From the IMG/VR virus record IMGVR_UViG_3300032116_015770: a stretch of 64,000 nucleotides of DNA. One strand, written 5' to 3'. The number at the start of each line of letters is the position of its first letter. Within the stretch, counting starts at the first letter, position 1. Of this stretch, positions 808 to 41,177 are shown piece after piece. This DNA comes from a virus. The notes beneath the pieces are model-generated. The model ran no database searches. It saw nothing but the letters and a program-made list of their open reading frames with translations, and had not been told where the DNA came from. The translations under genes were made by a program, and so were the position numbers.

Positions 808-2010
808 ATGGCCTTCAAAGAATACTTAAAAGAAGCTGAAAAAGCTAAAACAGCCGCCATCTTATTTGGTCGCATGAACCCTCCTACTTCCGGTCACGAA
901 GAGAACGTAGAGGGTCTTAAAAAAATTGCTAAACAGCATAATGCCGATCATCTGGTAATTGCATCTCATTCTCAGGATGCAAAGAAAAATCCTCTTACTG
1001 CACAGCAAAAAACTAAACATTTAAAGCGTGCGTTTCCCGGTACAAATATTACCACCTCTTCAAAAGAAAAACCTACTATCTTCCATCATCTTTCTGATTT
1101 GCATAGCAAAGGTTATGAGCATGTAGTTATTGCAGGTGGTTCAGACAGAGCTGAAGAGTATAATCGTCTTAAAGCTTACAATGGTAAAGAAGGTAAGCAC
1201 GGGTATTATAATTTTAAATCCATTAAAACAGTTAATACTGGTGAAAGGAAGCAAGGTGTATCCGGTACTGATATGCGCACACATGCCACTAATAATGACT
1301 TTGCATCTTTTAGAAAAGGTCTACCAAGTAAACTTGCAGCCCATGAGGGACATGCAAAAGAATTATTTCACGATGTTAGATCAGGTATGGGACTTCACGA
1401 AATCTACGACCCACATTTAAAAGTATCTAAGTATCAATGGGGTGAAATAGAAGGAGTAAATAAAATGAAATCTATGACACCAGGTGAAAAACAACAGAAG
1501 AAAAAGATACGTGAAGATTATGTTTCCGGTAATACCTTTAAATTATATGAGAATGTTCGTACAATAGAGGGTAAGGATGCCAAAGTTGTTTTCCGGGGTT
1601 CGAATTATGTAACATTAAAGTACTTAGATGGTACCGTAGAGAAAAGATGGCTACATGATGTAATGGAAGCTAAGGTACCAGTTACGTATAGAACATTTGT
1701 TTCTAATAACGAAAGAAAAATTCCTTTACTTCTAATGAACGAAGATCAAAGACGTGAATTAGTAGAGCAAAGAATGCAACTTGAGTTCGATGGTATTGAA
1801 ACTAAGAACTTTGATATGTGTGCTGATGCTTTCGCACAATTTAGAAAAATGATTGAAACAATTCGTAACGGTGGCTTATTAGGTGAACCAACCGGTCACG
1901 CAGTTACTCCATCCCACAGTGCCCCTACTCATAAAACAGTGCAAGCTGGTATTGCTATGAAACCCGATACTATGAGACGTATGCAATTTAAACAATACTT
2001 GAACGTATAA
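808..2010 (+). CDS. Cytidylyltransferase-like (HxGH nucleotidyltransferase) protein with C-terminal extensions
   Basis: FGRMNPPTSGH, AGGSDR and SGTDMR motifs typical of the T4-like phage cytidyltransferase family. Confidence 0.8.
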   Translation: MAFKEYLKEAEKAKTAAILFGRMNPPTSGHEENVEGLKKIAKQHNADHLVIASHSQDAKKNPLTAQQKTKHLKRAFPGTNITTSSKEKPTIFHHLSDLHSKGYEHVVIAGGSDRAEEYNRLKAYNGKEGKHGYYNFKSIKTVNTGERKQGVSGTDMRTHATNNDFASFRKGLPSKLAAHEGHAKELFHDVRSGMGLHEIYDPHLKVSKYQWGEIEGVNKMKSMTPGEKQQKKKIREDYVSGNTFKLYENVRTIEGKDAKVVFRGSNYVTLKYLDGTVEKRWLHDVMEAKVPVTYRTFVSNNERKIPLLLMNEDQRRELVEQRMQLEFDGIETKNFDMCADAFAQFRKMIETIRNGGLLGEPTGHAVTPSHSAPTHKTVQAGIAMKPDTMRRMQFKQYLNV

Positions 2011-29835: not shown

Positions 29836-29860
29836 AAAAGGGGCATTAAGCCCCTTTTTT
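29836..29860. terminator. Bidirectional rho-independent terminator
   Basis: AAAAGGGGC-ATTAA-GCCCCTTTTTT between convergent genes. Confidence 0.85.
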
Positions 29861-32033
29861 AATAAGTAGATACTCTATCTAGATGTTTATCTAAAGAAGA
29901 ATTAGTGTGACTTCTTGGTACTGCTTTCATTGGAGCAAACTGTGTACCACTACTATTATTAGTCGTATTGTTCATTATTACAGGTGCAGGGGCTGGTTTA
30001 GATTGAGCGGCCTCACGTATCTGGTCATTATATTCAACACTTAAATTACCTAAACTACTAGGCTCTTTCTTTACTGGAGCTACATTTGGTGCACCACCCC
30101 CTTGTTGTAAATAGCGAGCTTTAGCTTCTCTTTCAGCTTCCCTTACTTGACTCACGCTAAGCGTTTCCGAAGCCTCTCTACCTTCACCAGCAGTACGTAC
30201 ATTTCTACCCCTAATAACTTCTTGCTCTTCTTGTAATAACTTTTGATACTTTGGATCTTTAGTATAGTCTTTAGAAAAAACTTCTTTAGAAGCAGCAGTA
30301 GCCTTTACTGGTTTAGCTTTATCACCAGGGGGTGTAAGAGGAAAAGCTGCAGCACCTGTGGTTGTATTAACAGCATCTGCAGGTATTTCTTGCTTTGTAT
30401 CGCCTGTAAAATAATTCATTACTTTACCACCCAGTTCACCAGCTTTCTTACCTAATGAACTTCCTGCGAAGGCTCCTATAGCCCCGCCTGCTACACCTCC
30501 AACAACTGTACCTACAGGTCCGGCAAACGAACCTAATGCAGCACCTAGTTTCATACCGGCTAAACCACCGGCAGCCATACCTACACCTTCACCAACAGCT
30601 CCACCTTTTTTCTCGGTAGCTTGCTCATTAACCTGCTTAGTCATAGCATCAGCTTGTTCAGCAGTTAATTCACCAGATTTCTTTTTAGCTTCAATGTCAG
30701 CTAATGCAGCTTTTTGTTCATCAGATGCTTCTGAAAAACCAGAGTAGGCAGCGTAAGCGCCACCGGCAACAGCCAATGCTGCGCCACCTACTTTAGCAAC
30801 AGTACCAAGCCTACTAAAACGACTAGCTGCACCAGCAGCTTTTCCTGCTGCACCACCTTTCCCTCTACCACCTAATAAATCCTTTGCAGTATCTAATAAA
30901 CTACCACCCACACCACCGCTACCACCGGTAAATTCTTTTTCTTTTACAGTAGTTATAAGTTCGTCTAGTTTTTTGGTAATAGGTTGGTATTGTAAATCTA
31001 AATCAACTGGTTCCTTGGGAGAAATAGACTCAGATATTTTTCTTACAGAGTCTAATTGTTGTTTAGAAGTTTCTAATAAATCAGCAATAATAACATTATT
31101 TTCTTCCATGGACTTAGCCATAGCCTCTTGAGAGGTAACAACATTATCATCATTTTCTTTTTCTGATGCTTTTGCACCTTCCGCTTTTACTTCTTTTAAA
31201 TTCTGCTCTGCTTCTCTTACTCTTGGATCAATAGCTGCTAAATTAGTTTGTGCAGCTTCTAATCTAGCTTGTTCTGTATCAGTAGCCTCAAAACCACGTT
31301 TTTTGGCAGACGAAATATCACCTCTAGCTCCAGCTAGCTCTTGTTGAGCACCTTTTGTAGCTTCGTACCTTTTCCTACCTTCAGCCATTGTTTCATCTGA
31401 AACATACTCATCAGCTTCTTTTAATCTTCTTTCTGCTTCTTTTTTATCATACCCTGCTTTAAGGATACGTTCACGCATTTCGTCACGCTTACTTTGATCT
31501 CTTGCTCTACCTTCTTCGGTACGTAACCCGTAGTCTTTTGCAAATTGTTCTTTTTCCGGATTATAACCCGCTGGTGCAGAAATTATATCTCCTATGTCAC
31601 CCATTCTTTCATAGGCTTTATTTTGAACACTAGATGCAAAACCACCTATTGATTCTTTTATATTCTTTATAGGTGCTTTTAAGAACTCTTTTGTAGCTTC
31701 TCTTCTAGCTCTAATACCACCAACAGCAGACATTAATTTTTCTTTTAATGTTACCGGGGCTTCTTTTTCCCCTAACTTGGTGCTTTCACCAGGAGTCTCT
31801 TTATCCTCTTTTCCTCTGCTCGGCTTATTAAAACTATCTTTTAAATCTTTTAAAGTTTTATTAATATCTTCTAACTGTTTACCAACTTCATCCTTTAAAG
31901 TCTTATCTAAGGTCTTCGTACCTTTTTCTGATATCTGTTCAAACTTCTTTTCCTCAAGTAATACACCTAACGGTTTTTCCCCGGCATCTCCAGTAGATGC
32001 AGATTTTTTTATGTCTTCTATTGCTTTTTTCAT
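29859..32033 (-). CDS. Tape measure / baseplate hub protein (gp29-like)
   Basis: 724 aa, helical, glycine-zipper segment, N-rich C-terminus; follows gp26 and gp51. Confidence 0.65.
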   Translation of the reverse strand: MKKAIEDIKKSASTGDAGEKPLGVLLEEKKFEQISEKGTKTLDKTLKDEVGKQLEDINKTLKDLKDSFNKPSRGKEDKETPGESTKLGEKEAPVTLKEKLMSAVGGIRARREATKEFLKAPIKNIKESIGGFASSVQNKAYERMGDIGDIISAPAGYNPEKEQFAKDYGLRTEEGRARDQSKRDEMRERILKAGYDKKEAERRLKEADEYVSDETMAEGRKRYEATKGAQQELAGARGDISSAKKRGFEATDTEQARLEAAQTNLAAIDPRVREAEQNLKEVKAEGAKASEKENDDNVVTSQEAMAKSMEENNVIIADLLETSKQQLDSVRKISESISPKEPVDLDLQYQPITKKLDELITTVKEKEFTGGSGGVGGSLLDTAKDLLGGRGKGGAAGKAAGAASRFSRLGTVAKVGGAALAVAGGAYAAYSGFSEASDEQKAALADIEAKKKSGELTAEQADAMTKQVNEQATEKKGGAVGEGVGMAAGGLAGMKLGAALGSFAGPVGTVVGGVAGGAIGAFAGSSLGKKAGELGGKVMNYFTGDTKQEIPADAVNTTTGAAAFPLTPPGDKAKPVKATAASKEVFSKDYTKDPKYQKLLQEEQEVIRGRNVRTAGEGREASETLSVSQVREAEREAKARYLQQGGGAPNVAPVKKEPSSLGNLSVEYNDQIREAAQSKPAPAPVIMNNTTNNSSGTQFAPMKAVPRSHTNSSLDKHLDRVSTY

Positions 32034-32233
32034 TATAGGTGCTTACTATTCTGTTGAAGAATTTTTAATTTATCGTTTTCTTTTTTAACATGATCAACCA
32101 GAAGAGCTACGTAAATTTCCCTTTCCCAGGGTAACATATTTTCTAATTCTGTCAACGAGTACTTGTGATGTTGCATTAACGCAAAATTTAAAGTATAATA
32201 ATTAAGTAAGTTATCTTGAGAAAGGGTTATACG
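32033..32233 (-). CDS. gp51: gp51-like baseplate hub assembly protein (not in ORF track; probably made as a frameshift extension of gp26)
   Basis: RITLSQDNLLNYYTLNFALMQHHKYSLTELENMLPWEREIYV...KHL*; the stop overlaps the tape measure ATG; first ATG only at 32176. Confidence 0.85.
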   Translation of the reverse strand, partial: RITLSQDNLLNYYTLNFALMQHHKYSLTELENMLPWEREIYVALLVDHVKKENDKLKILQQNSKHL

Positions 32234-32922
32234 AAAAAATTTTGTAATCCGGTTAATTTAGTAACATTATGCTTACCACACTCATTACAATCTGCTTCTA
32301 TAGTCTGTACAACTTTAGGAGAAGTTGTAAAAAACTTCTCTATTTTTTCGAACTGAGATTTTGTAAAAGATTCAACAAACTCTCTTAATTCGTTTTTAGT
32401 CTGATCCTGTGCTTCATAGTATTCATCATTACTATAAACACCTTTAATACTGTTAGCAATTAACTCAATAATATCATCTGTACTACCATCTCCGATAACA
32501 TTTACCACATCATCAAATACTGGATAATTCATCTCAATACTATACATATCCGTTAACTTTATAATATTAGAGTGATCAGGTTCTTTTTCAATACTAACAT
32601 TTTCAATATTATAAGTTGCATCGATCTTATTTCCACATTCACAATTTACAATTACTTCTACTATTTCACTAATAGATTTTGCCCTTAAGTGTAAAAAGAT
32701 GTACTCTACATCGAAATGCGGCAGTTTATTAACTTGTAACTTATTAAAGGTACAAACATCTACTAATTCTCTTACAACTCTAGAAACTTCTTCTTCATTA
32801 GCGTCAGTTAGTGTTAATAAAATCTTATGTTCTTTTACTAGAAAAGGTCTATATGAAATTGGTTTATTGGTTGAAGGTAAAATCAATTCATACGTTGGTG
32901 TATCTAATTTTGGTAAAGCCAT
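32227..32922 (-). CDS. gp26: Baseplate hub assembly protein gp26
   Basis: MALPKLDTPTYEL..PS....YRPFLVKE.K, FDVEYIFL.LRAKS, C..C, GLQNFF. Confidence 0.9.
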   Translation of the reverse strand: MALPKLDTPTYELILPSTNKPISYRPFLVKEHKILLTLTDANEEEVSRVVRELVDVCTFNKLQVNKLPHFDVEYIFLHLRAKSISEIVEVIVNCECGNKIDATYNIENVSIEKEPDHSNIIKLTDMYSIEMNYPVFDDVVNVIGDGSTDDIIELIANSIKGVYSNDEYYEAQDQTKNELREFVESFTKSQFEKIEKFFTTSPKVVQTIEADCNECGKHNVTKLTGLQNFFV

Positions 32923-32934
32923 TATATCTCCTAA

Positions 32935-33636
32935 TTAACCAAATGATCCTGCTCCTACTTGTTGTCCGTTTTGATTATCTAAACCATCCGCCAGTCTAGG
33001 GGAAGGGCTTTGGATAGGCTTATTCGAAACGCTCTTATTAGCAGCTGCAGTAGTAACTGTCTTATTAACAAATATAGGTGTGGGTACGTCAGCTACTCTT
33101 GTAGTGCTTAAGTCTCTCCAATAACGATATGCAAATAAAACATTTAATCTATGTGTTTGATTAGTTGAGTTGTGATTAAGATCTAATAAATTTGCATTTC
33201 TAGGAAATGCATCTATTAACTCAACTTCATACGTAATATTTTCTTCTTCATCTAACTGTCTTATAATAACAGTGCCTTTATAATCATTTAACCAACCTAC
33301 AGTATAGCTATCTTTATCTACTACGGAATGCAACCAAGAATCAAAAAACCTTTTAATTTTCATCTCTCTGTCTAGATGAAAAACAATAGATGTACCTTCA
33401 CCACCATAATCACTTGTGATTGGTTTTTGGTATGCAGGTCCAAATATCTTAAATGGTTTAGTTTGAATATTAAGAATAGGGAAAGAAGCCTGCTCAGCAA
33501 ATAAACTTACTAAATCTGAACTCTGTCTAAGAGCAGCAGGGGGAATAATTTGAATTTCAAAACGATTAGTTCTAGCTAGACTTTTAGCTAAAAGAGTGGC
33601 TCTAAAATCCGCAATTTTAAAATGTGCTTTATTCAT
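32935..33636 (-). CDS. gp54: Baseplate tail-tube initiator (gp54-like)
   Basis: LARTNRF, FF..W, IRQLD, AFP, V.FAYRYW tube-fold motifs. Confidence 0.7.
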   Translation of the reverse strand: MNKAHFKIADFRATLLAKSLARTNRFEIQIIPPAALRQSSDLVSLFAEQASFPILNIQTKPFKIFGPAYQKPITSDYGGEGTSIVFHLDREMKIKRFFDSWLHSVVDKDSYTVGWLNDYKGTVIIRQLDEEENITYEVELIDAFPRNANLLDLNHNSTNQTHRLNVLFAYRYWRDLSTTRVADVPTPIFVNKTVTTAAANKSVSNKPIQSPSPRLADGLDNQNGQQVGAGSFG

Positions 33637-35802: not shown

Positions 35803-36293
35803 TGTATTTCGAACAGTTTCCAAAAACGTTTTATTCGTTAGATGACAATAAGAGCGTTCAGCTAGTTACCAATATTTTCTTACGTGTTATTCTTAGTGAC
35901 GAGATTAAAAATAATCTCACCTTGTATGAGCTATATGATATAAAAGAAGGGGAGACACCTGAAATTATTGCAGATCAGTTTTATGGCGATCCAAAATTAC
36001 ACTGGGTTATTTGCCACTTAAATGAGATAATTGACCCTAGATTTGACTGGCCTTTATCAACAAAAAATTTGAAAAGCTATTGTGAGACCAAATACGATAA
36101 TATTTTTGGTATTCATCATTACATTAATTCAGAAGGTTATATAGTAAATAGTACTGTTCCAGGTGCAACTTCAGTTTCTAATTTTCAATACGAAGAGCAG
36201 TTAAATGAAAAGAAGAGAAGAATACGTTTATTAAAACCTGAGTTTATTCGTAATGTAGTTAATGACTTTAAAAATATAGTGAGTAGTGTCTAA
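35802..36293 (+). CDS. gp53: Baseplate wedge protein gp53
   Basis: MYFEQFP, ETPEIIA...YGD..LHWVI, DWPL, NEKKRRI. Confidence 0.9.
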   Translation: MYFEQFPKTFYSLDDNKSVQLVTNIFLRVILSDEIKNNLTLYELYDIKEGETPEIIADQFYGDPKLHWVICHLNEIIDPRFDWPLSTKNLKSYCETKYDNIFGIHHYINSEGYIVNSTVPGATSVSNFQYEEQLNEKKRRIRLLKPEFIRNVVNDFKNIVSSV

Positions 36294-37651
36294 TGGTAGA
36301 TAGCGTTCAAAGAGCAGGTGCAGTAGATATTAGAACTTTAAAATTAATTACCACTGAAAATGTTGTAATTAATTTAAAGGAGTTTTTTGTTGAGCTTAAT
36401 ATTTACGAAGATATCTTTTCACCATGTATGAAAGGTGATATTGTTTTATCTGATAGTAGAAATATTATTGATTTAGGTAATTTAGTTGGTGAAGAATTAA
36501 TTAATATCGAATTTGTCACACCATCCTTCGAACATGTAATAAAAAAGACGTTTAGAGTATATCAAATCTCCGATCGCGCTATTGTAAGAGATAATAATAC
36601 GCAATTATTTACATTACATTTTGCATCAGTAGAATTTTTTTATGATATTAACCTACCATTATTCAGACCATTTGAGGGTGAAATAACAGATGTAGTTAAA
36701 GAAATATTTGGTCAATACATCGCTACGGGTAGAAATTATGATGCAAACCCTGATGATAAAGGTGCGAAAGAAGAAACCGAAATAATTACACCACTAGTTA
36801 TTTTAAACCCCACAACTAATAAAGTTAAATTTATTTCTCCTGGATGGACCCCTTTCAAATGCTTAACCTGGTTAGCCTCTAAATCTATACCTAAAGAAGG
36901 TAAAGCTAAAAATTATTTGTTTTTTGAATCTAATAAATCATTTTACTTTGGATCTTTAGAATATATTTTTAAAGAAACATTACAAAATAAAGAAACTATA
37001 GGTACATACTTTAAGTCAGCTGCAAACTTTAAAGAAGGTATGTTAGATTCTACTCATCTAAATCGAGAATATTTTATCGCTAAAGATGTTACTATGGTTG
37101 AAAATATCGACCATATTAAAAATTATACTAACGGGTATCTAGCTAATAGACTGTATTTTTTAGATGTAATGAATAAAACCTATGATGTAATTAATTATGA
37201 TTACGTTGAAGAATATAAGAACCAATGGCATACAGCAGGCTTTGGAGATTATGCCGTACCCATTTTCTCTAAGAATGCTTTTAGAAATTCAGCTTCACAC
37301 ATTAGTTATTACCCAAAAAATCCTAAACTGTTTGATAATTTTAAAGATAATATTAATGAAAAAATGGGTGAGATATATGGAAATAGATTGTCAAGTTTAT
37401 TGGATTTAACTAACATTAAATTGAATTTAACAATACCAGGAAGAACCGATGTAGAGGTAGGAAAGATGTTATACTTTTCTTATCCAAGTCTTGGTGGTAA
37501 AGATGATAGTAATAACGCTGATCCTTCTAAATCAGAAGATCCCAGTTACTCAGGTTACTATTTTATTACCGCAATTCGTCATAAACTTAACTTTAACGAA
37601 CATAACATGACTATGGAATGTGTTAAAGATTCATTATATACTCAGAGCTAA
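36293..37651 (+). CDS. Baseplate hub protein (gp27/late control D-like)
   Basis: ELNIYEDIF, YLFFE, IPG..D..VG, SGYY.ITAIRH; lies between gp53 and gp5. Confidence 0.7.
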   Translation: MVDSVQRAGAVDIRTLKLITTENVVINLKEFFVELNIYEDIFSPCMKGDIVLSDSRNIIDLGNLVGEELINIEFVTPSFEHVIKKTFRVYQISDRAIVRDNNTQLFTLHFASVEFFYDINLPLFRPFEGEITDVVKEIFGQYIATGRNYDANPDDKGAKEETEIITPLVILNPTTNKVKFISPGWTPFKCLTWLASKSIPKEGKAKNYLFFESNKSFYFGSLEYIFKETLQNKETIGTYFKSAANFKEGMLDSTHLNREYFIAKDVTMVENIDHIKNYTNGYLANRLYFLDVMNKTYDVINYDYVEEYKNQWHTAGFGDYAVPIFSKNAFRNSASHISYYPKNPKLFDNFKDNINEKMGEIYGNRLSSLLDLTNIKLNLTIPGRTDVEVGKMLYFSYPSLGGKDDSNNADPSKSEDPSYSGYYFITAIRHKLNFNEHNMTMECVKDSLYTQS

Positions 37652-38748
37652 TGCAAAGAATATTCAACAAAGATGGTTTTAATTGGTGGATAGGGGTTGT
37701 TGAAGATAGAAACGACCCTGAAAAAATGGGTCGTTGTAAGGTAAGAATTTTTGGTTATCATACAGAAGTTAAAGAAGTTTTAGATACTAAAGATCTACCC
37801 TGGGCAATTCCAATTCAACCTATTACATCAGCTGCTACTTCAGGTAAAGGATCCTCACCTTTAGGACCTTTACCAGGTACTTGGGTCCTTGGTTTCTTTT
37901 TAGATGGTACCGACATGCAGCAACCTGCTATGTTAGGTACGATTGCCTCTAGTACCGTGACATCAGGATTTGAAGAGACACCAGATCCTGAATATAATAC
38001 TAACCCTAATGATGGTGTTCTTAGAGATGGAACAGGTAAAGAAGTTCTTGATGAAAAAGGCGAACCGGTTAGATCAGGTACACCAGATATACCTGGGTGG
38101 AAGTTAGGACAGACATCAGAGAAGTATGAAGTAGGATCTGGCGGTCCAGGTACCATAAATGATTACAACGGTGCAGCAGCAGGAGACTTTGGAGGTGCAT
38201 CGTATGGTATCTATCAAATGTATTCTGGTTTACCTGTAAGTAGCCCTAGACTTAGCAAGCCAAGAGATGGAAGCGGGGGTACTGTTAAGTCATATGTTAG
38301 AGATCCTAACTGTAAATTTAGAGATAAGTTTGCTGGTTTAACTCCTGCAACTCCTGAATTTGATAGAGCGTGGAGAGCCTGTGCCTCTAGTAATGCAGCC
38401 GCTTTTAGAGAAGATCAACACGATTTTATAGAAAGAACTATCTATAATAAAGCAGTAAATATTTTAAAACGTCTTCAACTATGCGATGTAGATAAGTACG
38501 GCCCAGCAGTCAAAGATCTTGTATGGTCGACAGCAGTACAATGGGGCCCGGATAGAATTGATGATGCATTTAGAATTTTAGCAGATAAGAGTGTAATTAC
38601 AGAAAGAGAAATTGTTGATTTAGTCACTCAACATAAAATTAGCTTAATACCGAGAATGTTTGCAAGAAGTAGTGAAGCTACAAAAACGGGTGTACGAAAC
38701 CGTTACATTGCAGAGAAAGCTGACTTATATAAACTTATAAAATCATGA
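37651..38748 (+). CDS. gp5: gp5 N-terminal part: OB-fold plus lysozyme-like (VgrG3-type) domain
   Basis: WWIGVVEDRNDP...GRCKVRIFG.H, LPWA, GFFLDG; then SEKYE...GGASYGIYQ...VWSTAVQWGP. Confidence 0.8.
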   Translation: MQRIFNKDGFNWWIGVVEDRNDPEKMGRCKVRIFGYHTEVKEVLDTKDLPWAIPIQPITSAATSGKGSSPLGPLPGTWVLGFFLDGTDMQQPAMLGTIASSTVTSGFEETPDPEYNTNPNDGVLRDGTGKEVLDEKGEPVRSGTPDIPGWKLGQTSEKYEVGSGGPGTINDYNGAAAGDFGGASYGIYQMYSGLPVSSPRLSKPRDGSGGTVKSYVRDPNCKFRDKFAGLTPATPEFDRAWRACASSNAAAFREDQHDFIERTIYNKAVNILKRLQLCDVDKYGPAVKDLVWSTAVQWGPDRIDDAFRILADKSVITEREIVDLVTQHKISLIPRMFARSSEATKTGVRNRYIAEKADLYKLIKS

Positions 38749-41177
38749 GTAATCCTATTTTTGCTTCACAACTAAAAGGCATTTTTGAAAATCAAGTTTT
38801 TAATGCTATGAATGGTGTTGTCTCTAATATTCCAAATGAGACACTTAGAAAAATTGCTTCTAGAGTAGCTGAGACTACCGCTACACAAACCATTAGATTA
38901 GTATCTCAAAACGCCAACAAAAACATAACAGATATACCTAAAGCCTTAGTTGGACAATTTAACCCAGTTAATTTAGTAACAGGTAATCTAGGTAGCGCGG
39001 GTGTATCTAATAATTTAAATAATCTTTTAGGTACACAAGTTACTCAACAAATTAACAATTTAATTATTAATGAGCTATCTAGAGAATTAAGAACTATATT
39101 ACCACCTGGGGTTGGTGGAATAGTTAATACATCAGCTATTGTAGGTCGTATTGCAGAAATACTAGCTCCTACAGTATCTACGGGTATTACCTCCTCGCTT
39201 AAAAACTTTACCGACTCTATTTTTGGTGTAGGAGGCAAAACTCCTGCTACTGTAAATGGATTAACTACAATCTTAAGTTCAATTACTTCACCTTTCTTAG
39301 GTATTTTAGAATCTAACAAAGTCTTTTCTACAAGCATTGCTTTAAAAGGTTTAACTCAATCTAGAAATTTTAATGTAAATTCTACCGATAATAAAAACAA
39401 GTTAGCTGTTACTAAGCAAGGATTTACAGATCCAACTGCTAACTATCCAACTAAAGAGTATGCAAAAGGACCTGAGACTAATAAATTAGCTAGAGGTGAA
39501 ATTCAAGGTACTATTATACAAAAGAAAAATGACGAACGTATGATAGGTGCCCCTTTACCTAATGGTTCGACATGGGAACAACCTATATCTCCTTATAAAG
39601 GTGAATACCCTTATAATAAAGTAACTGAAACAGAAGCCGGGCATATTATCGAGGTAGATGATACCCCTGGTGCAGAAAGAATTCACGTATTTCACAAATC
39701 AGGTACGTTTGTAGAAATAGACAATACTGGCTCTTTGGTGCAGAGAATCAAAGGTTCTTCCTACACTATTGTAGATAGAAATGGAAAGATTTTTATTCAA
39801 GGTACCGCGGATGTATCTGTTAAAGGTGCTATTAACGTTTACGTAGCACAAGATGCAACAGTGGAAGTTAAAGGTAATGCTAGTATTGCAGTTTATCAAG
39901 ACATTAATGCAAGAGCCGGTGGTAATGTAAATATATCTGCACAAGATAATCTTAACTTAATATCTGCTAATGTTTACATCGAAGCACTAGAAAACTTTAA
40001 TATTAAGTCTAATGCTCTTCTAAGCATGCATGTATCTAAAGATTTGCATGTTAGATCTAATGCTAACGCATATGTTCAAGCTACTACTTATTATCAAAAT
40101 ACAACTAACAGTTACAATCAAACCATAGAGAATTCATATGAAAAACATGGTAAGTCCAGGTTTATTCAATCAGCAGAAAATATTCATGTAAAGAGTACAG
40201 GTACATATAATACTCAATCTGGTGGAGTAATGAACTTTAAATCGGGCAGTACATATAACATGCAATCAGCTGCTGCTATGAATCTCAAGGCTGGTGGTAA
40301 TATTAATGAAGATGGTGCGTTGATTTATTTAAATTCCGGTACAGCGGGCACTGCTGGGGATACTACTGACTCTAAAGATAGTAAACCAGCAAGAATTGCT
40401 GATCGTTCTCTTGCTGGTATGTTGAATACAAAAGTACTTGCTGGTAGTGCTGATGATGTGCTTGCTCCTAATGAAACTGAAGTAAAAGATCCTGTGGCTG
40501 CTAATTTAGGAGACTCCTACTCAGTCTTGTTAGATGAAGAAATTCAAACTTCCAAAGAGTATAACGCTCATAAAGATAAAATTGTATTATCAGGTATTAC
40601 TACAAATAGTGATTTTTCAAGAGCACCTGTCGTAGCTAGAAGTGAATCGGTTTCCTCGCAACAAACCAACACTGTATCTGCAAGTAATGATTTAAAGAGT
40701 TACAATGTACTACCAGGCAACTTTAATTTGTCTCCAAACTTTACAGTAGAAATGCTCTCGGATAAAACTAGCTATACTAAGAGTATAATTAAAACAACTA
40801 ATAATATTAAGTATGGTACTGTTATATTTAATTTAAGTAGTCTTGCATTAAATATATTAGAACCAATTTTATTAGTATATCCAGATTTGCAAATTGTTTC
40901 TGCATATAGAACACCTAACTTGGCACCAGCATCTTCATTACATACACAAGGTAAAGCTGTGGACATTCAGTTCCAAGGTTTATCCTATGAAGAATATTTT
41001 GATAGATCTATTCAATTAGCAAGAGTATTAAACTACGATCAATTTATTTTACATTATTGTAGCTATGCTAAATCACCCTGGATTCATATTTCATATCAAG
41101 GTTCGAATAATAGAAGACAAATATCTACATTCTGGAATAACAAAAAACACTCTTCTGGTTTAAAGGAGCTTAGATAA
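38745..41177 (+). CDS. gp5 C-terminal part: spike beta-helix plus peptidase M15-like domain
   Basis: YPYNKV.ETEAGH..E.DDTPGAERI...HKSGT, 8-residue beta-helix repeats, SAYR...SLH..G.AVD...WIHIS. Confidence 0.8.
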   Translation: MSNPIFASQLKGIFENQVFNAMNGVVSNIPNETLRKIASRVAETTATQTIRLVSQNANKNITDIPKALVGQFNPVNLVTGNLGSAGVSNNLNNLLGTQVTQQINNLIINELSRELRTILPPGVGGIVNTSAIVGRIAEILAPTVSTGITSSLKNFTDSIFGVGGKTPATVNGLTTILSSITSPFLGILESNKVFSTSIALKGLTQSRNFNVNSTDNKNKLAVTKQGFTDPTANYPTKEYAKGPETNKLARGEIQGTIIQKKNDERMIGAPLPNGSTWEQPISPYKGEYPYNKVTETEAGHIIEVDDTPGAERIHVFHKSGTFVEIDNTGSLVQRIKGSSYTIVDRNGKIFIQGTADVSVKGAINVYVAQDATVEVKGNASIAVYQDINARAGGNVNISAQDNLNLISANVYIEALENFNIKSNALLSMHVSKDLHVRSNANAYVQATTYYQNTTNSYNQTIENSYEKHGKSRFIQSAENIHVKSTGTYNTQSGGVMNFKSGSTYNMQSAAAMNLKAGGNINEDGALIYLNSGTAGTAGDTTDSKDSKPARIADRSLAGMLNTKVLAGSADDVLAPNETEVKDPVAANLGDSYSVLLDEEIQTSKEYNAHKDKIVLSGITTNSDFSRAPVVARSESVSSQQTNTVSASNDLKSYNVLPGNFNLSPNFTVEMLSDKTSYTKSIIKTTNNIKYGTVIFNLSSLALNILEPILLVYPDLQIVSAYRTPNLAPASSLHTQGKAVDIQFQGLSYEEYFDRSIQLARVLNYDQFILHYCSYAKSPWIHISYQGSNNRRQISTFWNNKKHSSGLKELR

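Follow-up and report, generated by a model that had tools for sequence, protein, structure and literature searches.

We report here that a gp26-family gene in a 64,000-nucleotide stretch of viral DNA (IMG/VR record IMGVR_UViG_3300032116_015770, henceforth referred to as the window) probably gives rise to two tail assembly chaperone (TAC) forms, gp26 and a gp26-51 fusion, by -1 ribosomal frameshifting on a run of six T residues (T6) close to its 3' end, in a manner that resembles the G/GT pair of phage lambda. The window is part of a complete virus record, 165,076 bp in length, that carries terminal repeats. According to this reading, which draws on sequence comparison, most ribosomes would read AAU UUU UUC GUA and then stop, which would yield the 231-aa short form (TAC-N, the equivalent of T4 gp26). 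A minority, with two tRNA-Phe on UUU UUC, would slip back by one base, re-pair on U UUU UU, take CGU as the next codon and add 66 residues, which would yield a long form of 296 aa (TAC-NC) that corresponds in function to T4 gp51. If lambda G/GT and T4 gp26/gp51 are taken as a guide, the two forms would act on the tape-measure-like protein encoded by the following gene while hub and tail are being initiated, both would be absent from the virion, and the C-terminal domain (C-domain) would provide the long form with an extra contact. We infer the slip itself, its ribosomal nature and the binding partners of the two forms; the efficiency of the slip is probably low.

The gp26 junction and the -1 frame in the window

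The gp26-family open reading frame (ORF) is preceded by a Shine-Dalgarno (SD) sequence, AGGAG at 32932-32928, located 5 nt ahead of its ATG, and its product matched PF12322 ('T4_baseplate') over the full short form (E 1.3e-58, residues 9-230 against profile positions 2-218 of 219), the phrog_150 'baseplate hub' profile (E 1.8e-64) and T4 gp26 (28% identity, E 2e-17). The ORF ends with ...ACC GGA TTA CAA AAT TTT TTC GTA TAA, where the TAA at 32229-32227 is the zero-frame stop, and the protein accordingly ends with ...TGLQNFFV. A re-check of the sequence agreed with the preliminary description of this locus, which had pointed to the slippery heptamer T TTT TTC at 32239-32233, in the correct phase, within this end. 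As in a canonical -1 site, the two tRNA-Phe on the heptamer can pair again once shifted into the -1 frame. In E. coli, heptamers of the type H_HH.U_UU.Y rank among the -1 motifs of highest efficiency, and U_UU.U_UU.C, which is used by insertion sequence (IS) elements, exceeds 0.1% without a stimulator (PMC4066793). On its own, the heptamer is not above chance in the AT-rich window (60 occurrences of TTTTTTY were observed versus 82 ± 14 expected), and the significance of the site is therefore based on its conservation and on the coding content of the -1 frame, and not on the motif count.

Following the predicted shift, in which base 32233 is used a second time, translation in the -1 frame gives FF-RITLSQDNLLNYYTLNFALMQHHKYSLTELENMLPWEREIYVALLVDHVKKENDKLKILQQNSKHL and then a stop, a total of 66 new residues after FF. 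The preliminary description had also stated that this frame is closed by a TAA nine codons upstream, that it offers no ATG, GTG or TTG until codon 20, which lacks an SD and lies inside the gp51-like motif, and that it runs to a stop overlapping the ATG of the following gene. All of this was found: the TAA lies nine codons before the R (seven before the first F), no start codon occurs before the ATG at 32176, which is codon 20 if the R is taken as codon 1, the sequence ahead of this ATG, TTTAAATTTTGCGTTA, contains no purine-rich SD, and a 724-aa ORF begins with an ATG whose A also serves as the last base of the -1 frame stop.

The 66-aa peptide matched the gp51 profile phrog_634 ('baseplate hub assembly catalyst'; E 5.4e-26, positions 58-119 of 121) from peptide residue 2 onwards. 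It also covered positions 235-280 of phrog_150, the C-terminal 45 positions unreached by the gp26 ORF, and in BLASTP it aligned with residues 201-244 of T4 gp51 (E 6e-6). A tblastn search with the peptide returned matches in 560 phage records, with at least 80% of the query covered in 508, and among the matches listed nearly all rows began at residue 1 or 2; therefore the stretch that precedes the internal ATG is coding and conserved. The matching phages were mainly cyanophages, pelagiphages, KVP40-like vibriophages and Sinorhizobium phages, together with Methylophilales and Aeromonas phages, and the C-domain alignment (A3) had a mean column identity of 58% over 38 diverse loci. Judged by this homology, the -1 extension is the gp51-specific C-terminal domain. 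Trypsin would release the junction peptide LTGLQNFFR, followed by ITLSQDNLLNYYTLNFALMQHHK, from the predicted fusion, and LTGLQNFFV from the C-terminus of the zero-frame product.

We also considered gene copy number. In the complete genome of the window phage there is a single PF12322 gene and a single C-domain, located next to each other, and no separate full-length gp51. By the same count, T4 has two PF12322 genes and P-SSM2, ValKK3, phiM19 and Melnitz-2 have one each. The window phage thus lacks the T4-type arrangement, in which two paralogous genes account for the short and the long form.

Conservation of the junction and its counterpart in T4

To assemble relatives of the locus, 80 IMG/VR loci were collected with the window protein as query (45-67% identity) and about 160 further loci with the gp26 proteins of P-SSM2, ValKK3 and phiM19 as queries, and annotated GenBank regions were added. 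Hidden Markov models of the gp26 part and of the C-domain were run on three-frame translations of these loci, and both parts were present in 242 loci, of which 215 were unique after removal of duplicates. In all 242 loci the frame of the C-domain is -1 with respect to gp26 and a T-run marks the junction, with a length of six residues in 225, seven in 12 and eight in 5. Among the unique loci, to which the counts below refer, the heptamer was T TTT TTC in 202 and T TTT TTT in 13, and the X XXY YYZ phase of the run was invariant. The codon before FF was AAT, AGT, GAT, GCT, TCT, ACT or CAT, seven codons for six amino acids that always end in T, set against a baseline T usage of 80% at comparable two-fold sites of the same genes. 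The zero-frame stop occurred 0-1 codon past the heptamer in 204 loci, and just 5 had an ATG, GTG or TTG upstream of the heptamer in the -1 ORF. In 23 loci the -1 frame is closed by a stop only 1-2 codons upstream of the heptamer, yet conservation begins at the heptamer, and the position of the first downstream ATG varies among relatives (codon 5, 20/21, 34 or none). The best conserved stretch of the 180-nt segment around the junction, third positions included, consists of the 22 nt AATTTTTTCGTATAACCCTTTC.

The site recurs across distant lineages: it reads GAT TTT TTC GTA TAA in Schizotequatrovirus vibriophages, AGT TTT TTC GTA TAA in P-SSM2 (Kyanoviridae), AAT TTT TTT ACT in Sinorhizobium phage phiM19 (Emdodecavirus) and AGT TTT TTT TAA in Methylophilales phage Melnitz. 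Synonymous loss of the heptamer, which the preliminary description had named among the observations that would speak against its proposal, was not seen in the aligned gp26 3' ends. As judged from these alignments, the invariant T6 and the upstream wobble T in the 215 loci, compared with TTC TTT in T4, show that the slip site is under selection at the nucleotide level. In seven of the unique loci, namely Pelagibacter phage Mosig (L002, 1494-1528) and a few IMG/VR loci, the zero frame continues for 8 codons past the heptamer; a near-immediate stop is therefore common, but not obligatory. Separately, short contigs of other, non-identical phages from the same lake and from 'fungus' metagenomes matched window positions 32208-32247 over about 36 nt with 2-3 differences, which fits the slip site being the most nucleotide-conserved part of the locus.

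T4 serves as the reference for the two proteins. The preliminary description treated T4 gp26 and gp51 as products of separate genes, and this is upheld by the two PF12322 genes of T4 and by their orientation: the two are transcribed divergently, gene 26 from the minus and gene 51 from the plus strand, and genes on opposite strands cannot be joined. T4 genes 26 and 51 are thus true separate paralogues and not an overlooked frameshift. T4 gp51 (249 aa) matched phrog_150 over positions 13-280 of 282 (E 2.6e-84) and PF12322 over its residues 1-201, whereas T4 gp26 (208 aa) matched phrog_150 only up to position 235. In the alignment of the family (A1), T4 gp26 ends with ...RGLKEFFELL where the window protein ends with ...TGLQNFFV, and T4 gp51 reads through the FF position into the domain that is held by the -1 frame of the window. 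In terms of this alignment, T4 gp51 is a gp26-family protein with a C-terminal extension and the natural single-ORF counterpart of the predicted fusion. The FF of T4 gp26 is encoded by TTC TTT, which is not slippery, and the two residues are kept at the protein level (..EFFELL) even though T4 gp26 has no shift. The earlier proposal that the FF end of gp26 reflects the shift site consequently stands for the choice of codons and the preceding T, but not for FF itself.

Overall, the window proteins and those of T4 belong to the same family (PF12322, phrog_150), the short forms end at the same FF position, and the long form in each case consists of the short form and the same C-terminal domain of about 45-66 aa; in contrast to T4, which has two paralogous genes without a slippery site, the window phage has one gene and a predicted -1 shift. 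In T4, gp26 and gp51 are hub assembly chaperones, and gp51 is needed for assembly but absent from the particle (T4 tail review, PMC3004832). An unrooted tree of gp26 and gp51 N-domains (12 rows) contained three groups, corresponding to gp51, T4-type gp26 and frameshifting gp26. The frameshift state may be ancestral, a view drawn solely from its wide distribution; an unrooted 12-row tree cannot date the duplication.

Chaperone fold and rival explanations

We next consider the fold of the short form. The AlphaFold2 model of gp26, for which a 38-row alignment served as input, had a mean pLDDT of 88.9 and a pTM of 0.83. Foldseek found no match to this model in the PDB at E <= 0.001, and a profile search with alignment A2 against PDB sequences returned two chance-level matches only, neither of them a TAC. 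In an exhaustive VIA-align search of the model against 48,161 chains, the first three ranks, all aligned to residues 1-93, were 3FGX, an uncharacterised Bacillus stearothermophilus protein (Z 7.2, rmsd 3.8, 85 residues aligned), 2OB9, the 'bacteriophage HK97 tail assembly chaperone' (Z 6.9, rmsd 4.3, 84 aligned), and 3KLU, YqbN (Z 6.5, rmsd 4.4, 85 aligned); further ranks scored Z 5.0 or lower. We take 3KLU and 3FGX to be chaperone-type proteins as well. The weight of this result comes from the rank of the named chaperone, second among the top three, and not from Z alone. The comparison with tail assembly chaperones that the preliminary description had suggested thus points the same way as its proposal, and the model supports a TAC-like fold, as in 2OB9 and 3KLU, for the N-terminal ~90 residues of gp26. 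Residues ~90-231 form an extra alpha/beta domain that is partly Cys-rich and contains two Cys pairs, and the overall fold is widespread among myovirus proteins in BFVD. The Cys pairs, at residues 94/96 (NCECG) and 212/215 (CNECG), have counterparts in T4 gp26 (CTCG and CPECG) and look like a zinc-ribbon-type site, as far as the motifs indicate; most of these Cys are lost in P-SSM2-, phiM19- and Melnitz-type relatives (alignment A1). A complex prediction for the 66-aa C-domain (alignment A3) with the gp19 tube protein of the phage scored 0.00, which is uninformative either way.

The resemblance to lambda G/GT lies in a short ORF placed just upstream of a tape-measure-like gene, a heptamer near its 3' end, a long form that contains the whole short form, and the lack of an evident strong RNA stimulator. 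The resemblance to HK97 lies in the fold of residues 1-90, which matches 2OB9. The locus differs from lambda in that gp26 has no detectable sequence homology to G and is twice its size, with the extra domain at residues ~90-231, in that its upstream neighbour is gp54-like and not the major tube protein, and in that the motif is U UUU UUC, whereas the lambda slip motif is G GGA AAG. Like the predicted shift, the lambda G-T shift is low-level and largely unstimulated. A conserved -1 frameshift of long-tailed phages was reportedly described by Xu, Hendrix and Duda in 2004. In chaperone pairs of the lambda type, both forms bind the tape measure protein and stay out of the virion, and the long form additionally recruits tube protein. 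The earlier claim that gp26 and gp26-51 are the G/GT equivalents is supported by the homology of the C-domain, its T4 gp51 counterpart, the invariant site, the single gene copy and the TAC-like fold.

Several observations weigh against ribosomal frameshifting, or against the chaperone role, at this locus. No conserved RNA structure was found downstream or upstream of the heptamer in the relatives (RNAalifold 0.0, mean z -0.8), and single-sequence z-scores of the window were about 0 (+0.3 to -0.1). Many relatives carry an SD-like GAAGG at -14..-10, about 9 nt upstream, which is confounded by a conserved Gly codon, and the corresponding position in the window is ACCGG, so the element is absent there; stimulatory elements, whether a structure downstream or an SD-like sequence upstream, are frequent at bacterial -1 sites without being obligatory. 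Since neither a conserved structure nor GAAGG was found in the window, a low-level, largely unstimulated shift is to be expected. Furthermore, the top VIA-align Z of about 7 falls in the 'middling' range of the tool's own scale, the identity of the following gene as a tape measure gene is only probable on sequence features, a subgroup of cyanophages has an ATG 5 codons past the heptamer from which a near-full-length stand-alone C-domain could be made, and a T6 run could support slippage of RNA polymerase (RNAP) with an identical protein as the outcome.

The last of these points leads to programmed transcriptional slippage, in which RNAP would insert one U on the T6 run and thereby produce the same fusion, NFF-RITLSQ. 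A homopolymer occupies the junction in every lineage, runs of T7-T8 occur in 17 of the 242 loci, insertion of one U yields exactly the conserved reading, and the conserved upstream T both lengthens the run and completes the heptamer. Bacterial RNAP, however, usually slips only on runs of at least about 8-9 residues or with the aid of a hairpin, which counts against this explanation, as do the exact X XXY YYZ phase in which the run is always found and the failure to find conserved flanking RNA structure. Moreover, position 7 is C in 202 of the 215 unique loci (94%) although the residue that it begins varies (R, L, Q or H); the run is therefore kept at the heptamer minimum and is not lengthened. 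U7 is avoided in genes, possibly owing to transcriptional slippage (Sharma et al., PMC4066793), which lends this explanation some further plausibility, and we regard it as unlikely, though as the one serious rival among the alternatives. A related proposal, that T6 acts wholly or partly through U insertion by the phage-modified host RNAP, conserved across the non-Tevenvirinae part of the T4 superfamily, seems to us no more probable and perhaps slightly less so; if true, the site would be an unusually short natural transcriptional-slippage signal and T4 would have swapped RNA-level recoding for gene duplication.

If, alternatively, there were no recoding, the C-domain would be made only as an independent 47-aa 'gp51' from the ATG at 32176. 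That ATG does exist, and a stand-alone C-domain is how the majority of GenBank records present it, with small gp51 ORFs annotated in those of Mosig, P-SSM2, phiM19, Melnitz and ValKK3. Yet the 19 residues ahead of the ATG show the same degree of conservation as the remainder and can be aligned with T4 gp51 and phrog_634, the ATG has no SD, and Met20 is not conserved (LINHH, LVQDH and MITHG occur at this place, and some loci have their first ATG at codon 34 or none at all). An independent start is also at odds with the 23 unique loci that are closed 1-2 codons before the heptamer and in which conservation still starts at the heptamer, and it leaves the invariant T6 and the upstream wobble T unexplained; we therefore consider it improbable. 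An assembly or sequencing indel in the T-run, the true gene being a single in-frame gp51-like ORF, had been named in the preliminary description as a possible source of error. Homopolymers are prone to indels and one Logan contig (run X7) ends inside the T-run, but contigs of two other studies, from lake water (X8, 31800-32275) and freshwater 2024 (X9, 32007-32574), cross it with 0 differences and 0 gaps, and the same frame relation is seen in the 215 unique independent assemblies and cultured-phage genomes. This explanation was rejected on the basis of the X8 and X9 contigs and the census, and its probability is negligible. Ribosomal frameshifting on the T6 run is the reading that we prefer.

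Neighbouring genes, annotation and significance

The coordinates of the predicted features, and those of the C-domain in GenBank phages, are collected in Table 1. The 724-aa ORF downstream, which through its TAATG overlap with the -1 frame stop appears to be translationally coupled, encodes a long protein that is helical in its N-terminal part and rich in Gly at its centre. By Atlas features it scored 0.89 to a PF25671 T4_Tape_measure cluster and 0.81-0.82 to other tape measure protein (TMP) clusters. It had no match to a Pfam TMP family, and BLASTP found no significant match between it and T4 gp29. Of the earlier statement that the junction lies just upstream of the tape measure gene, the overlap with this ORF was found, and the identity of its product is probable and not proven. 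The centre of the 724-aa protein is Gly/Ala-rich and hydrophobic (Pfam Gly-zipper, E 0.011), and an N/T-rich motif, IMNNTTNN, is located ~30 residues from its C-terminus, with parallels in T4 gp29 (SINNTNNV), ValKK3 ORF318 (VQNTTNF) and phiM19 gp109 (NTTNATSTNINN); this motif may mark a conserved hub-proximal end.

Table 1. Features of the gp26 junction and its neighbours in the window, and the C-domain in GenBank phages
Feature	Position	Strand	Remarks
gp26-family gene, short chaperone form (TAC-N)	32227..32922	-	231 aa; from ORF list; PF12322
Slippery heptamer T TTT TTC, X XXY YYZ phase	32233..32239	-	zero-frame codons AAT TTT TTC
-1 frame extension, gp51-type C-terminal domain of predicted long form (TAC-NC)	32033..32233	-	66 codons (RITLSQ...SKHL) and stop at 32035-32033
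Predicted transframe coding sequence (CDS) gp26-51	join(32922..32233, 32233..32033)	-	230 + 66 = 296 aa; junction ...TGLQNFF-RITLSQ
Internal ATG, Met20 of extension	32174..32176	-	start of rival 47-aa stand-alone ORF; no SD
Probable tape measure protein (gp29 analogue)	29859..32033	-	724 aa; TAATG overlap with -1 frame stop
gp54-like tube-fold protein (baseplate-tail tube initiator), upstream gene	32935..33636	-	phrog_3629 E 3e-26; phrog_45 'tail tube' E 4e-25
C-domain, S-WAM1 (L001)	1501-1697		unannotated
C-domain, Mosig (L002)	1558-1692		small 'gp51' ORF
C-domain, P-SSM2 (L003)	1510-1683		small 'gp51' ORF
C-domain, L085	2507-2674		small 'gp51' ORF
C-domain, L087	2516-2677		small 'gp51' ORF
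C-domain, L088	2555-2698		small 'gp51' ORF

The gene order gp4-gp2-gp54-gp26-[51]-large ORF is common to the window and to ValKK3 (KVP40-like), phiM19 (phiM12-like) and Melnitz. On the opposite strand, a baseplate module at 36293-41177 (+) contains gp48-like and gp53-like genes, a gene for a 452-aa protein matching phrog_350 ('tail protein'), and a gp5 homologue in two ORFs, of 365 aa (OB-fold N-terminus) and 810 aa (beta-helix and endolysin-like C-terminus).

With respect to previous work, our literature search returned no paper directly on a gp26/gp51 frameshift and none on 'baseplate hub assembly catalyst' together with frameshift. Direct experimental proof, in the form of a junction peptide, a reporter assay or a distinction between an RNA and a ribosome mechanism, was likewise not found in the searchable literature. 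Vladimirov, Gautam and Davidson (Virology 2022;566:9, PMID 34826709) are credited, in the accounts of PMC10885494 and PMC12846349, with identifying the genes for tail chaperones in T4-like phages, TAC-N and TAC-NC. [quoted passage not shown] Going by these second-hand accounts, both the concept and the poly-T signal are already known for T4-like phages.

This knowledge is not reflected in the GenBank records. The seven frameshift-type records that we examined annotate a truncated 'gp51' or nothing, and none of the seven has a joined or ribosomal-slippage CDS. The annotated small 'gp51' ORFs begin at whichever ATG is at hand; phrog_634 is apparently built largely from ORFs truncated in this way, and phrog_150 combines gp26 and full-length gp51. 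The cyanophage, pelagiphage and KVP40-like records (P-SSM2, S-PM2, Mosig and ValKK3 among others) share with the window an identical architecture and the T TTT TTC (GTA TAA) site, and their C-domains are 63-70% identical to that of the window. They differ in that they present two independent ORFs or leave the C-domain unannotated, whereas the present reading joins the two.

The practical value of the result hence lies in annotation, given that the C-domain was matched in 560 GenBank phage records. The present analysis contributes independent confirmation, a census that puts numbers on the site, a single-copy control and one more member, which is uncultured and from freshwater. For the biology of these phages, the preferred reading would mean that a single gp26-family gene can supply both of the chaperones required by T4 to initiate hub and tail, and it would link T4 gp26 and gp51 to the G/GT logic that is universal among long-tailed phages.

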